In this document: positions 91-45,423 of the stretch, piece by piece
How positions within the stretch are numbered: position 1 is the stretch's first letter
How the letters are laid out: every line of letters starts with the position of its first letter
IMG/VR virus record: IMGVR_UViG_2563366980_000004
DNA: 45,423 nucleotides
Reading direction: 5' to 3' (one strand)
Source: a virus
Taxonomy: Duplodnaviria > Heunggongvirae > Uroviricota > Caudoviricetes
Notes under the pieces: generated by a model
What the model was told of the DNA's origin: nothing
The model's input: only the letters and a program-made list of their open reading frames with translations
The model's database searches: none
Program-made: the position numbers and the translations under genes

Positions 91-165
91 ATGACGTTGT
101 CTCCTTATTTGCAAGAGGTGGCGAAGCGCCGCACTTTTGCCATTATTTCTCACCCCAATAATTAA
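91..165 (+). pseudogene. prfC: 5' remnant of peptide chain release factor 3 gene (prfC'), truncated at the prophage junction
   Basis: ATG at 91 preceded by AAGAAGAAAG; translation [22 protein letters not shown] matches the RF3 N-terminus as I recall it up to the start of the GTPase P-loop, then diverges (NN-stop) where phage DNA begins. Confidence 0.55.
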
Positions 166-319
166 GTCCAAATTAAAGCTCTTTCACTCTTTCAAAATCC
201 TTTCAGTTAATTGAGGTCGAGCTATATAACTCATTTAAATACATTTGGTTATGTGACTTCTTTAATTGAAAATTCTTTCATGTAACTTTAAATCGATCAG
301 GTTGCTTTCATCAAAAATC

Positions 320-376
320 TGTACATATGCTTGTACATAATGTACAAAGCAGCAGAGGTGTTTTGCGATTTGTACA
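320..376. promoter_or_regulatory. Cluster of four TGTACA motifs overlapping the integrase promoter/leader
   Basis: TGTACA at about 320, 332, 341 and 371; TTGTACAtaaTGTACAA forms a near-palindrome about 40 bp upstream of the int ATG. Confidence 0.35.
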
Positions 377-385
377 AGGTGAGTA

Positions 386-1600
386 ATGGCGCTGTCTGAT
401 GCGTGGTTGCGTTCAGTCGTTGGAAAGGAACGTGATAAGGTTTTGGTTAAATCCGATCGTGATGGTCTGTCTGTCAGAGTATCACCGAAAGGTCGCGTAG
501 TGTTCCAATATCGTTATCAATGGGCAGGGAAAGGTGAGCGTCTTGATATCGGAACTTACCCGGCAACTGGATTAAAAGAGGCCAGAGAAGAAGTTATTCG
601 TCTCCGTGGTGAACTCGAGTCAAACCGTAATCCACGATTGGTCAAGCAGGCTGAAAAACGAAAAGCTACTGAAGCCATGACGGTAGAGTCTGTGATCCGT
701 GCCTGGTATGAAGCATATTGTGTAAAAAATAAAAAAGGTTCTGAACAGATACTCCGCTCGTTTGAGCTGCACCTGTTCTCTAAAATCGGGAATATCCCTC
801 ACGATGCAGCTACATTGCATGATTGGTTAGAAGTCCTGGAGCCTCTTAGCACTAAGACTCCAGCAATAGCAGACCGATTGCTAATTAACGCAAAGCAGGC
901 CCATGTCTGGGCGTATAAGAGAAAGCTCATTGAAACTCGCCCGCTGTCGGATATCACGGGTAAAGATATGGATATCCGTAAAGGTCAGAAGAAACGGTTT
1001 CTGACACATGATGAAATTAAAATCCTTTATGCTGCGATCGATGGTTCTCGAATGGTTCCTAAATACCGGGCCTTCATTAAACTATTGCTTCATTTTGGTT
1101 GCCGTAGTTCAGAGCTAATTACCGCCAGGGTGGACGATTTTGATTTCATTAATAAAGTATGGACTGTACCACCAGAACGACATAAGACTGGGGAGATAAC
1201 AGGCGAACCGCTAAAGCGGCCCATTATTGAACCGGTTGAAGAGCTTATAAAGTACGCTATTTCTATGAACAATGGTTCCGATATGCTTTTTACTAAGGAA
1301 GGAAGCAGGGAACCCGTTGGTCGGACATCATTGCAGTCGCTGCCTTACAATTTAATGCAGTATGCATGGCGGCGTTTGGGTTATCAATTCCCTCATTGGT
1401 CTCTTCATGATTTGAGGCGAACAGCACGAACAAACTTTTCTGATCTTACTGCGCCTCATATTGCAGAAATTATGCTAGGTCATAAACTGCCAGGGGTATG
1501 GCAAGTTTATGACAAGAGCGATTATCTAGAAGAACAGCGTAAAGCCTACCAAGCGTGGTGGGAGAGGGTTGAATCGATCGTTACTTGTACTGGTTCATAA
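386..1600 (+). CDS. int: Tyrosine-type site-specific integrase
   Basis: 404-aa ORF with AAGGTGAG RBS; N-terminal arm-binding-like region and C-terminal catalytic region with the conserved HxLRRT-like signature (HDLRRTART) and a tyrosine near the C-terminus (VYDKSDY); first phage gene next to the junction. Confidence 0.9.
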   Translation: MALSDAWLRSVVGKERDKVLVKSDRDGLSVRVSPKGRVVFQYRYQWAGKGERLDIGTYPATGLKEAREEVIRLRGELESNRNPRLVKQAEKRKATEAMTVESVIRAWYEAYCVKNKKGSEQILRSFELHLFSKIGNIPHDAATLHDWLEVLEPLSTKTPAIADRLLINAKQAHVWAYKRKLIETRPLSDITGKDMDIRKGQKKRFLTHDEIKILYAAIDGSRMVPKYRAFIKLLLHFGCRSSELITARVDDFDFINKVWTVPPERHKTGEITGEPLKRPIIEPVEELIKYAISMNNGSDMLFTKEGSREPVGRTSLQSLPYNLMQYAWRRLGYQFPHWSLHDLRRTARTNFSDLTAPHIAEIMLGHKLPGVWQVYDKSDYLEEQRKAYQAWWERVESIVTCTGS

Positions 1601-1975: not shown

Positions 1976-2971
1976 TCACTTTTGTTTTAGCTTTATAATT
2001 TCTGATATCATAGTTGTTAGCTTTGAATCGGAAAGATTCTGCAGTCTATCTTTCTCAATAGAAACTGTAGTTTGTCCCTTTTCTAATATGAAATTTCTTT
2101 CTGTTTTCATTAAAAGCATTGCCAACTCTTTTATCATGTCTTCGTTCTTGAATTCTTGAGCATATTTTAGAGACATGACTTTCATCTCAATATTTGTGAT
2201 TTCATTCTGAAAATATTTGATTTCGTCAAACCCATTTTTATAGAGGCGTAGAAAAAAATAAGCAAACAATTCAACGACTATTACAAATGATAATTTAGGA
2301 AGGTGATGAATAAAAAATCCCACCCCATCCACAATGTCTGGCGCGCTGTAAAGAAAGTAAGCAAGAGATAATATCCCTGTCAACGCAATTATTGTTCCGA
2401 TTGCAAGGTTAAGCCCACCTCGTCGATTGAGTCTGTCTATTTCAGACTCTAATCTTAGAACCATATCAGTATGGAGTTTATGTAAGCTGTAGCTCTTCTT
2501 AAAATCAGATATATCGCTTTTTAGGCTGTTATCTGCCAGAAGTATTGTGTTTCCAATTATTCTCTTTTTTGCATCGGATATTAACTTCTCCCTTTCACTC
2601 TCTGTTATTTCAATGGAAACTCCGGAAGATGTTCTATTTTCAATTTCGCTCAATTTTTTATTTAGCTTAACTATTTCTTTGTGAAAAATATATCTCGTGT
2701 TTTCAATATCTCTACCACCAATTCCTTTGTTTAAATAAGAAGTCATTATTGCGACAAAAGAACCAACAAAAACTAGGGCAGTTGCTGTAAATAAAATAAA
2801 CTCTTTCTTCTCGTTTATTAAATTTACTATTGATGATGATTCCAGTTGAATGTCTGAAAGCGAAGTTTTAAGCACAAAATTCATCACAGGTGAAACCATG
2901 ATTATGGCAACAACTATAATAAATCCATATTTTTTTATAATGTAAATAAGAAGGCCAAATAAATCTTTCAT
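1976..2971 (-). CDS. Hypothetical integral membrane protein with four predicted TM helices and coiled-coil segments (AT-rich moron)
   Basis: 338-aa ORF (TTG at 2992; first ATG at 2971); hydrophobic segments at roughly residues 15-37, 66-87, 195-217 and 232-250 separated by K/E-rich heptad-like regions; markedly AT-rich relative to flanking phage genes; no family recognised. Confidence 0.7.
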   Translation of the reverse strand: MKDLFGLLIYIIKKYGFIIVVAIIMVSPVMNFVLKTSLSDIQLESSSIVNLINEKKEFILFTATALVFVGSFVAIMTSYLNKGIGGRDIENTRYIFHKEIVKLNKKLSEIENRTSSGVSIEITESEREKLISDAKKRIIGNTILLADNSLKSDISDFKKSYSLHKLHTDMVLRLESEIDRLNRRGGLNLAIGTIIALTGILSLAYFLYSAPDIVDGVGFFIHHLPKLSFVIVVELFAYFFLRLYKNGFDEIKYFQNEITNIEMKVMSLKYAQEFKNEDMIKELAMLLMKTERNFILEKGQTTVSIEKDRLQNLSDSKLTTMISEIIKLKQK

Positions 2972-3344
2972 TTTATCTTTTACCTGAAACAAATTTTTAT
3001 TAAAGTAACTTAAAAAATGATTGATTGCAAGATTTACTATTGCTGTTCATTTTAAATTACTATACCCCCCTATGCATACATATAATCCCATAGGGGAGAA
3101 GTTTATTAGTTAGTTAAGTTGAAGGCTATACCTACAATCTAATTCCCCTCCAACCTAACATGCACAAGCGTCAACCTATCGGTAGTGATAATTTTATGAG
3201 GATACGTATAAACAAGATTCTGAGTTGCTCCTATTCATTAAGACAATACATTTTGTAACTTCTGCTTTTGGCTCAGGGTGGGGTGTGAGATTAGGTTTGG
3301 CTCTGTGCCATAGATGTGTCAGTTCACATCTGAGCTAATACACA

Positions 3345-11008: not shown

Positions 11009-11823
11009 GTATGGAGCTGATGGTTAAAGCGATGAAAATTCGAGTGGGTAATCCATTGCGAAAACTGGTTCTGATCAAGCTGGCTGATAATGCCAGCGAT
11101 CAGGGTGAGTGCTGGCCCAGCTACCAGCATATTGCTGACCAGTGCGAGATTAGCAAACGTTCTGTGATGAATCATATTGCGGCCCTTTGTGAGTCCGGGC
11201 TGGTAAAAAAAGTCACCCGGAAAGGTGAAAAAGGTAACTCAAGTAATATCTATCTCCTTCATCTTGATGGTGCAGGAGATTCACTAGGGGGTAGTGCAAA
11301 TAATTCACTATCTGGTGCAGCAAATTCACCAGGTAGTGCAGGAGTTGCACCAGGGGGTAGTGCAGGAGATTCACCCAGAACCAGTCACTCTTTTGAACCA
11401 GTCAAAGAACCAGTCAATGAACCAATAGCTGTTGGTGCATCTGCTGATGAGTCTGTGCGAGTTCGTTCAAACCGACCGGAATACTCTCCGGAGTTTGAGC
11501 AGGCATGGCTGGCCTATCCCAAACGTGCTGGTGGCAATTCAAAATCTGCAGCCTTCAAAGCCTGGAAAGCCCGTTTGAATGAGGGGGTAAACCCCGAAAC
11601 CATGCTGGAAGGTGTGAAACGCTACGCGGGCTGGGTATCTGCGATGGGTAACAGCGGCACACAATTTGTGAAACAGGCTGTCACGTTCTTTGGTCCGGAT
11701 CGTCATTTCGAAGAATCCTGGGAAGTTCCTGCAGTATCTGCAGCCAGACGCGAGGACCCGTACTTCAAAGCCAGTTACGACAACGTGGACTACAGCCAGA
11801 TCCCGGCAGGATTCAGGGGGTGA
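11005..11823 (+). CDS. Replication initiation protein (O-like, N-terminal HTH; YfdO-like)
   Basis: 272 aa; N-terminal winged-helix-like region, central Gly/Ser/Ala-rich linker encoded by direct DNA repeats, C-terminal domain (EFEQAWLAYPKRAGGNSKSAAFKAWKARL). Confidence 0.7.
   Translation: MSMELMVKAMKIRVGNPLRKLVLIKLADNASDQGECWPSYQHIADQCEISKRSVMNHIAALCESGLVKKVTRKGEKGNSSNIYLLHLDGAGDSLGGSANNSLSGAANSPGSAGVAPGGSAGDSPRTSHSFEPVKEPVNEPIAVGASADESVRVRSNRPEYSPEFEQAWLAYPKRAGGNSKSAAFKAWKARLNEGVNPETMLEGVKRYAGWVSAMGNSGTQFVKQAVTFFGPDRHFEESWEVPAVSAARREDPYFKASYDNVDYSQIPAGFRG
11269..11388. repeat. Iteron-like direct repeats inside the O-like gene (putative ori)
   Basis: GTGCAGGAG(A/T)T, GGTAGTGCA and ATTCAC motifs each recur 3-4 times within about 120 bp. 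Confidence 0.4.
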
Positions 11824-43531: not shown

Positions 43532-44290
43532 TTAACATTCTGGATTTTTTATTTCTAAATCAGATAAAGCATTAATTCTTATTTTTTCTAAGGCTTTATC
43601 CATGGCCCCCTTGATTCTGTATCCATAATCATCCGGTTCTTCATATTCCTGTGGGGACGGATTTGTACCAATATTCTCAATCAATTCATTTAAAATAACT
43701 GTTACTTCTTTATTAAGAAGAACTGCTTTAGTTAACATCATCTCTGTTAATGCTGTGAAGGCTAGGCTAAGTTTCTGTTGTAGCTCTTTATTTTTTAATT
43801 TTAGATCTTCATCGTTTAGTGCTTTATCACGGTCTTCGTGAGCCTGTTGTACTTCATCCCAAAACTGCTTTTCTTGTTCTTGATTAAAATATCCTTGATA
43901 ACTATTGGCTACATATGTTGGCATCATGTGAATCTCAATAATTTCAAATTCATTATCAGCCCATTTTTTTATACTAAGTAACTGTGTGTAAATGTACTCA
44001 TACATATCGTACTTTTTTTGCCAGATTTGTTGAGAAATCCACAACTCAGAAGTAATCTTTTTTTCTATATCTTTGATAGTTGTTGTATTTAATGCTAACT
44101 GCTTTCTGAGTATTTCATAGTTAGCGTTGGTAGCAGAAATTTTTGCTTTTTCAGTTATAAAAGAAACAATAAAGTTCACTATGAGAGCTACAATAATAAT
44201 AGCGAAGCTCAACCCCAAAATCTCTGTGGTTGAGAAATTGGATGACTGTAATGCTTTGATAAGTTCAAAAAACTGTTTTTCTGTGAGCAT
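43532..44290 (-). CDS. Hypothetical membrane-anchored coiled-coil protein (AT-rich cargo gene)
   Basis: 252 aa; ATG with AAGG RBS; single N-terminal TM (ILGLSFAIIIVALIVNFIVSFI) followed by an acidic coiled-coil region; AT-rich, antisense to the tail genes. Confidence 0.65.
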   Translation of the reverse strand: MLTEKQFFELIKALQSSNFSTTEILGLSFAIIIVALIVNFIVSFITEKAKISATNANYEILRKQLALNTTTIKDIEKKITSELWISQQIWQKKYDMYEYIYTQLLSIKKWADNEFEIIEIHMMPTYVANSYQGYFNQEQEKQFWDEVQQAHEDRDKALNDEDLKLKNKELQQKLSLAFTALTEMMLTKAVLLNKEVTVILNELIENIGTNPSPQEYEEPDDYGYRIKGAMDKALEKIRINALSDLEIKNPEC

Positions 44291-44388
44291 GGTGCCTTAC
44301 CAAAAATTAAGACTGTTATCTATATAAAAATGTTACCCAAGAGGGATTGTAATGAAATAACAAACCGGCACATTGGCCGGTTTGAAGT

Positions 44389-45423
44389 TCAAGGAGGTGA
44401 GATTGTAGAGGCGTTACCTTGTTCTATCACACCAGACCTAATCTTGTAACTACCAAGGATGTTGACCGTTTTATTATTTTTCATCGCGTCAAAAATTAAG
44501 CCTATTTCATCAGGGTCATTGATAAAACTGGTATCAACATAGATCGGGAATGAATCATCACCTGTTGGCTCATGGCAGCTTAACGTTAGCTTATCGGCTG
44601 AGCGTTTTATACTATCAATGACAACTTCCAATGTTTGCTGCTCTGACTTAGCCTTTTCAATTGGGTTCTTGATGATTTCTTGAACCTGACCTTGCGAAAG
44701 TTCAATATTGCTGGCCCCGCGGATCGTCACTTTGTCTGCATCAGATGCACCTTTAAGAACTCCAGTGTATGCCTTAGCGGTGTGCTCTTGGATACCTTCG
44801 GCGCGCTCTATCGTATCAATACCTTCATGTGCTTTTATTGCAGACAGCATACCATCGCGTAGAATTGTCATCCGCTCGGATTCTGCTCGCTGTTTTGCTT
44901 CTTCCTGTTGTAACTCAATAGTTTTGGTTTCGACTTGTGTCTGATGATCTAAGTAGGACGTACCGACCCATGCGCCGCCTAAAACTAAGACAGCAAACAG
45001 GAAACACATTGTTTTCTGTCTTGGGCTCATACCTTGTGTTACCTTCTCAAATGCGTTACCAAAGGAATCAATAAGTTCTTTAACTGAGGTGATAATTTCT
45101 GTACAGCCAGGTTTGATAGTAAAAACCAACTCTGCAGCTTCTCTATCCTCAGCAGTGAGCTTCTGTAAGTTAGAGGTTTTGTACTTGATTAGAGTAAAAA
45201 CCTTGTACATCTCAGTTTGAAATTCACAAATACCCTGTGCCAAACCTGCAGGCAGAGTACCATTATACTTATCTTCATCACCAAAAAATTTGAAATCAAT
45301 ACTTTCTAAGAAGTTTAACTTCAAATTTTCAATGTGGATTTCTTCGCCTGAAATAACTCGGTCGAAAATATTTCCTATATCATCAATATCATTGATTTCA
45401 TAGGTCTGAATTGCATCTTCCAT
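44389..45423 (-). CDS. Hypothetical protein with central TM segment and coiled-coil (AT-rich cargo gene; N-terminus may lie beyond the window)
   Basis: ORF runs to the window edge (344 aa seen); acidic N-terminal region, TM segment (TMCFLFAVLVLGGAWVGTSYL), Q/E-rich coiled-coil, C-terminal globular region; same strand and composition as 43532..44290. Confidence 0.65.
   Translation of the reverse strand: MEDAIQTYEINDIDDIGNIFDRVISGEEIHIENLKLNFLESIDFKFFGDEDKYNGTLPAGLAQGICEFQTEMYKVFTLIKYKTSNLQKLTAEDREAAELVFTIKPGCTEIITSVKELIDSFGNAFEKVTQGMSPRQKTMCFLFAVLVLGGAWVGTSYLDHQTQVETKTIELQQEEAKQRAESERMTILRDGMLSAIKAHEGIDTIERAEGIQEHTAKAYTGVLKGASDADKVTIRGASNIELSQGQVQEIIKNPIEKAKSEQQTLEVVIDSIKRSADKLTLSCHEPTGDDSFPIYVDTSFINDPDEIGLIFDAMKNNKTVNILGSYKIRSGVIEQGNASTISPP

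Follow-up and report, generated by a model that had tools for sequence, protein, structure and literature searches.

Arm-type binding sites for integrases, and int genes that overlap attL and are repressed by their own products, are already established concepts. In phage lambda, the integrase (Int) is heterobivalent and carries an N-terminal arm-binding domain, which recognises short sites on both arms of the attachment site (P1, P2 and P'1-P'3) that are distinct from the core sites; a mixture of direct and inverted orientations is typical of arm sites, and lambda int is expressed from pI/pL and not through attL. The promoter region of the P4 int gene, by attP, is reportedly repressed by Int, of which the N-terminal part is sufficient, and by the excisionase Vis. 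P4 has other arm repeats, targets the leuX tRNA and adds a post-transcriptional control. The Int of KplE1 (CPS-53) of E. coli K-12 is presumably a member of the DUF4102/IntSXT subgroup, as is the Int described here. In KplE1 the P'1 arm site overlaps the -10 of intS, and both IntS and TorI repress intS (Panis et al. 2010, PMC2951348). Smyshlyaev et al. (2021, PMC8138268), who also cover the P4/Sf6 cluster, group the Int of phage cdtI with IntSXT in a prfC-targeting 'SXT cluster', which forms part of the IntSXT subgroup with DUF4102.

The locus analysed here lies at one end of a stretch of 45,423 bp (hereafter referred to as the window), which is the lambdoid prophage of E. coli UTI89 inserted in the 5' end of prfC (NC_007946.1, 4987026-5032448). 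Positions 1-155 are 100% identical to the uninterrupted prfC of thousands of E. coli genomes and the host identity ends at 155; ATTTCTCACCC (145-155) is common to attL, attR, attP and attB, the identity with some versions of attP extending back to 136. The complete prfC (RefSeq 5033363-5034949) resumes ~0.9 kb beyond the window end, and its first codons in UTI89 are supplied by the phage and replace those of the host. The gene order at this end is prfC', int and a xis-like gene, the first two on the plus strand and the third on the minus strand. Scans of the window and 29 related loci found no tRNA, which indicates that a tRNA is not used as the target by these elements.

Int matches PF13356, PF22022 and PF00589, corresponding to an arm-binding N-domain, a central domain and a catalytic domain, and residues 3-90 are covered by PF13356 (Arm-DNA-bind_3, E = 1.9e-16). 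The arm-binding domains of the HPI (3JTZ/3RMP) and HAI7 (3JU0) integrases in PDB align to residues 1-80/96 with E-values of 1e-6 and 3e-4, respectively; the similarity is a distant one of protein sequence. The alignment is an argument for regarding the N-terminus as a genuine DNA-binding domain of the arm type. As Int carries such a domain, arm sites must exist somewhere in attP. The window Int is a member of the prfC-targeting SXT cluster of the IntSXT subgroup, and its close relatives include those of phages cdtI (~96% identical in DNA), Ayreon and 2H10 and of many Stx1a and Stx2c phages. About 700 of 5,426 complete E. coli genomes carry this int at prfC.

The arrangement at this locus resembles that of KplE1 in that the 5' end of int faces attL, int has the orientation of its target gene and forms no operon with the gene of the recombination directionality factor (RDF), and P' sites, putative here, fill the region upstream of int. 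The two differ in the target (the argW tRNA in KplE1 versus the prfC 5' end here) and in the arm motif (TAAA-containing versus TGTACATA), and the promoter and start site have been mapped and repression demonstrated in KplE1, whereas consensus scans found no promoter here. A tandem array on the int-proximal P' arm is shared with lambda, but the lambda sites are ~10 bp long, lie no more than ~150 bp from the core and are non-palindromic (C/AAGTCACTAT), whereas those described here have a palindromic core hexamer and a period of 12 bp, and the ones on the P' arm are 167-220 bp away from the core. IntSXT of the SXT/R391 elements (Hochhut & Waldor 1999; PMC8138268) belongs to the same cluster, has the same prfC 5' target, and its element also supplies a replacement prfC 5' end. 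The int and xis genes of SXT are convergent, as in most of the loci compared here, but the promoter of the SXT int gene is Ps003, which SetCD controls, and transcription does not come from the attL side.

The original prediction, made from the sequence of the window, was that four TGTACA hexamers, two of them forming a near-palindrome, lie within 60 bp of the int start. Four hexamers are indeed present (320-325, 332-337, 341-346 and 371-376), and positions 331-347 (TTGTACATAATGTACAA) form a perfect 8+1+8 inverted repeat of 17 bp. The distance was slightly understated, as the array spans -66 to -10 relative to the int ATG, placing the first hexamer 66 nt upstream; the ATG at 386 agrees with the RefSeq annotation and is preceded by the Shine-Dalgarno sequence AAGGTGAG at 376-383. 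The hexamer is not over-represented in the window as a whole, with nine copies against 8.9 expected from shuffled sequences, yet four of the nine are confined to 57 bp just 5' of int. The probability of at least four copies in 57 bp is ~5e-10 per span and ~2e-5 window-wide (Poisson/Markov estimates). It stays between 6e-9 and 9e-11 when the local AT-rich composition is used, and thus local AT-richness does not explain the cluster. The direct pair corresponds to CTGTACATATGCTTGTACATAAT (319-341 of the window). The reverse complement of the site at 371-376 has the same flank consensus as the first two sites, which makes it an inverted copy, so that the P' array reads direct (320), direct (332), inverted (341) and inverted (371), to the right of the prfC crossover core. 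The features of this region are listed in the table.

Table. Features at the attL end of the UTI89 prophage (positions in the window).
Feature	Position	Strand	Basis or remarks
Truncated host prfC 5' end at attL	91..164	+	ORF list; partial CDS in RefSeq
attL core/crossover region	136..155	.	attL compared with UTI89 attR, Ayreon and cdtI attP, and empty prfC sites
CTTTCA, five copies, clade-specific repeat in one orientation	181..310	+	starts at 181, 189, 200, 275, 305
Tandem direct pair, putative P' arm	320..337	+	cTGTACAtatgctTGTACAtaa; 12-bp period; consensus R-TGTACA-TA
Extra inverted site	341..346	-	minus strand reads TTGTACATTA; makes 17-bp palindrome with site 332
Inverted site, putative arm-type	371..376	-	abuts int Shine-Dalgarno; -15 to -20 from start codon in many clades
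int, 404-aa tyrosine integrase, SXT/cdtI (prfC-targeting) cluster	386..1600	+	Pfam, PDB alignment, PMC8138268
Xis/AlpA-like small HTH protein, 64 aa	3345..3539	-	weak HTH_17/HTH_23 matches; opposite to int

Other features of the window were also recorded. The only other hexamer clustered as tightly as TGTACA is GAACCA at 11378, where four direct repeats GAACCAGTCA (the last being GAACCAATAG) occupy 11378-11427 within the replication-initiator-like HTH gene UTI89_RS24740; these look like lambdoid ori iterons within an O-like gene. An ORF of 338 residues with predicted membrane segments (1976-2992, minus strand), for which a Pfam search gave no match, lies between int and the xis-like gene. In the related loci L006-L010 xis comes right after int, and in cdtI and Ayreon a different large ORF is found there, so that the interval looks like a variable cargo slot. 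Two AT-rich, low-GC hypothetical ORFs (43733-45423, minus strand) lie between the tail-fibre genes and dinI/attR, a place typical of a moron or defence gene.

Homologues of Int at 43-85% identity occur throughout the Gammaproteobacteria and in some Betaproteobacteria, and the conservation of the array was examined in 80 loci encoding Int relatives of 43-99% identity. The pattern GT[AC]CA-N7-GT[AC]CA is present within 130 nt 5' of int in 68 of the 80 loci, mostly at about -80 to -45 from the int start, as against four matches in the 513 kb of sequence elsewhere in the loci. A motif-blind search for the best tandem 9-mer with a period of 11-13 returned a period of 12 and a GTACA-type motif in ~70 of the 80 loci; exact TGTACA-N6-TGTACA is found in 40. 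Many loci carry the third, inverted site at -15 to -20, adjoining the ribosome-binding site. Motif variants in the relatives include GGTACAAAT, AGTACAAA and GGTGTAA, and the orientation is explicit in one variant locus, in which two copies of GGTACAAAT are followed by ATTTTGTACC. The 17-bp palindrome and the inverted site at 341-346 are restricted to the lineage of E. coli and Pantoea; what is conserved as a unit is the direct 12-bp pair together with the distant inverted site. When the attL regions of E. coli, cdtI, Pantoea, Xenorhabdus and Serratia were aligned, the invariant columns clustered in the core, three TGTACA sites (that at 371-376 being invariant) and the int start, with scattered single invariant columns only elsewhere. 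Variability within the species was assessed from a scan of viral contigs, whose matches were E. coli prophage ends of 98-100% identity only, many of them cut at int; among 20 distinct close E. coli relatives, none of the 24 hexamer positions varies, whereas 50 of the remaining 202 positions of the intergenic region do (Fisher p = 0.0017).

An additional GTCCA-N7-GTCCA pair is present in the Franconibacter pulveris locus (L069) at about -307 from int, ~230 bp upstream of the int-proximal pair. The spacing between the two pairs equals that of the P and P' pairs in the attP of Salmonella phage SPN3UB, which suggests an attP-like junction, derived from tandem elements or a remnant.

The prediction had also named the two ends of the prophage as the place to look for matching repeats, and these were found. 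The attR (P arm) of UTI89, ~0.9 kb past the window end, contains four TGTACA hexamers (47729, 47798, 47826 and 47838 of the UTI89 locus L004), of which those at 47729 and 47798 are inverted and are followed by the direct pair TTGTACATATGATTGTACATAAT (47826-47848). This set (47729-47843) lies 80-195 bp to the left of the core, and the attP of phages Ayreon and cdtI show the same four-site P-arm layout. The P-arm direct pair, 23 bp in all, is nearly identical to that of the P' arm, and an unbiased repeat search returned this P/P' pair as the longest direct repeat in attP (35 nt, 80% identical, 264 bp apart). Thus, in UTI89, Ayreon and cdtI four sites on each arm flank the core in the order inverted, inverted, direct, direct, core, direct, direct, inverted, inverted. 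Both arms were inspected in the E. coli phages and SPN3UB, and no repeat family other than TGTACA is common to both attP arms.

In L004 47826-47866 (UTI89 attR), the tandem pair of the P arm is situated 17-39 bp upstream of the phage-supplied prfC start codon; a consensus scan for a promoter of this hybrid prfC found none, and Int on the P-arm pair could affect the expression of release factor 3 (RF3) in lysogens. Adjoining the P arm, a LexA-box-like palindrome TACTGTGTTTGTATACAGTA (L004 47655-47680, UTI89) lies upstream of the phage dinI-like gene. A LexA box (CTGT-N8-ACAG) in the cluster itself was considered and rejected by eye; the real LexA-like box is that in front of dinI, close to attR.

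The motif changes with the integrase. In 12 genome loci (Enterobacter, Kluyvera, Franconibacter, Edwardsiella and others; 44-47% Int identity) GTCCA replaces GTACA, and the same holds for SPN3UB; the layout is kept, a direct pair of 12-bp period being followed by inverted TGGACA copies. In SPN3UB the GTCCA pair is present on both arms of attP (L165 1193-1211 and 1427-1445). The Ints of the GTCCA clade differ in the N-domain from those of the GTACA group (S29W, K37A, Q41F and D54T). Motif and Int hence covary, across two main clades and minor variants and with phylogeny as a confounding factor. The motif is also kept in loci away from prfC with other flanking genes, and the core (TTTGCCATTATTTCTCACCC) does not contain TGTACA. 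Its retention after a change of integration target shows that the motif is no core-type site; it goes with the arm-binding part of Int rather than with the core specificity. In the prfC-adjacent loci, the only spacings between the core His codon and the pair are 135-137, 146, 157 and 165-167 bp, with steps of ~10.5 bp, that is, whole helical turns, as would be expected of a folded protein-DNA complex.

Int is likely to be the protein that binds these sites, and the TGTACA hexamers of the window probably represent the P'-arm set of arm-type sites for its N-terminal domain (PF13356). This reading rests on the need of Int for arm sites, the presence of the motif on both arms in mixed orientation, the covariation with the N-domain and the lack of any other repeat family common to both arms. 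The N-domain of Int would bind an arm site while the C-terminal domains bind a core site, and such bivalent binding together with DNA bending would fold attP (or attL and attR) into a recombinogenic intasome. The distance of the P' sites from the core is unusually long in comparison with lambda and counts against the assignment to Int. Within attP, no match to the IHF consensus WATCAANNNNTTR was found with up to one mismatch.

The original prediction had left the choice between integrase arm sites, an Xis/AlpA-type protein and a host factor, and it is the first of these that both-arm presence, covariation and helical phasing favour. Conservation alone cannot separate Int from the RDF as the binder, since most loci keep a small wHTH RDF gene behind int, in convergent orientation. 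The Xis/AlpA-like protein of the window is a probable RDF, its equivalent is labelled excisionase in the cdtI record, clear homologues are found directly after int in loci L005-L010, and analogous small wHTH ORFs are found convergent with and right after int in most other loci, so that the RDF is co-inherited with Int. If this protein bound TGTACA, it would play the part of TorI in KplE1, bending the arms for excision and repressing int. Phased direct repeats are the usual targets of RDFs, and a distance of 12 nt separates the TorI sites I1 and I2. This reading is nonetheless improbable. RDF sites are normally on one arm, whereas TGTACA occurs on both, in direct and inverted copies; the RDF sequence diverges far more than the motif (tblastn finds the window Xis in eight of the 80 loci); the recognition-helix regions of the RDFs are alike in the GTCCA and GTACA clades (SSRTLERY versus SSRTIFRR), whereas the Int N-domains differ; and, were TGTACA taken by the RDF, no candidate arm sites would be left for Int. 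A one-arm repeat would suit the RDF better, and one is found in the CTTTCA family, which includes a 20-nt repeat (191-210 and 266-285) and has five of the 13 copies of the window within 229 bp; attR contains no copy. In other Int clades the corresponding place is taken by AGACA/AGTCA repeats. Speculatively, the CTTTCA repeats can be regarded as candidate sites of a DNA-bending protein or of the Xis-like RDF.

The palindrome TTGTACATAATGTACAA is of operator-like size and the prophage encodes several HTH regulators, which could point to an operator of a factor unrelated to recombination, either a repressor-type dimer of the phage that would occupy the 17-bp palindrome or a regulator of the host, acting on int only. 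Such an operator is very unlikely, in view of the narrow lineage distribution of the palindrome, the way in which the motif follows Int through phages and non-prfC elements of many genera whose other genes are different, and the second set beside prfC on the opposite arm, a place in which an operator of int would be of no use. A host factor in particular is disfavoured, since the motif changes with the Int clade within closely related hosts: Enterobacter, Kluyvera and Salmonella have host regulators in common with E. coli and yet show the switch to GTCCA. Host regulators of the OmpR/PhoB type were rejected on the 12-bp period and the clade-specific change of the motif. It is scarcely credible that the cluster arose by chance or from the composition of an AT-rich intergenic region, or that it reflects an RNA structure of the int leader. 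The region is AT-rich, and a hairpin predicted in the leader can pair the site at 341 with that at 371, but the window-wide probability, the conservation and the covariation are contrary to chance, the fold of 300-400 is no better than that of shuffled sequences (z = -1.0) and the site at 341 is missing in most clades. An RNA element was accordingly rejected; Rfam gave no family at the gathering score, the sole match up to E = 1 being a chance microRNA match inside int.

With regard to the expression of int, the original prediction placed the array over the int promoter, where it would couple the expression of int to att-site occupancy as in KplE1; a sigma-70 consensus scan found no promoter-like plus-strand site between 29 and 385, nor in the P' arm of attP, and lends the promoter part of the prediction no support. 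Hexamer candidates picked by hand, such as CATAAT at 336-341 or TTGCTT-18-TATGCT at 302-331, were not adopted, being weak and without conservation. The promoter region of the host prfC (TTGCCT-16-TAAAAT, 1-28), together with the prfC' ORF, points into int, and no terminator was predicted between this promoter region and int. In the lysogen int may therefore be transcribed from the prfC promoter of the host, and in attP from the prfC' side carried by the phage. Because the P' set occupies the final 66 bp in front of the ATG and touches the ribosome-binding site, Int bound there would probably reduce int transcription, either by occluding a promoter or by stopping read-through that starts at the host prfC promoter; the fixed place of the third site by the Shine-Dalgarno sequence in many clades is consistent with an occluder or roadblock role. 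Judging from position and from the precedents of KplE1 and P4, the chances that Int occupancy represses int in a negative autoregulation are about even. A wider proposal, put forward as a doubtful one, is that the array is a family-wide three-part switch, in which a 12-bp-phased direct pair and an inverted site by the int ribosome-binding site, at whole turns from the core, would link the production of Int to the assembly of the intasome in the prfC-targeting phages and islands of the Gamma- and Betaproteobacteria and in their relatives there, and in which Int could also modulate host RF3 through the P-arm twin.

The searchable literature contains no description of a TGTACA arm motif or of the prfC attP arms and no published map of IntSXT arm sites; the motif, layout and phasing for integrases of the prfC/SXT cluster and the GTACA/GTCCA specificity pair thus appear to have been undescribed before. 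The map of putative arm sites (R-TGTACA-TA, with its layout and phasing) concerns a cluster that includes CDT- and Stx-converting phages and relatives of the SXT/R391 resistance elements, and helps to delimit att sites and to predict attP from sequence. The GTACA and GTCCA motifs, with a few residues of the N-domain, constitute a natural specificity swap for the reading of DNA by DUF4102 arm domains. Self-limited integrase levels may, in addition, bear on prophage stability and on the mobility of toxin phages.
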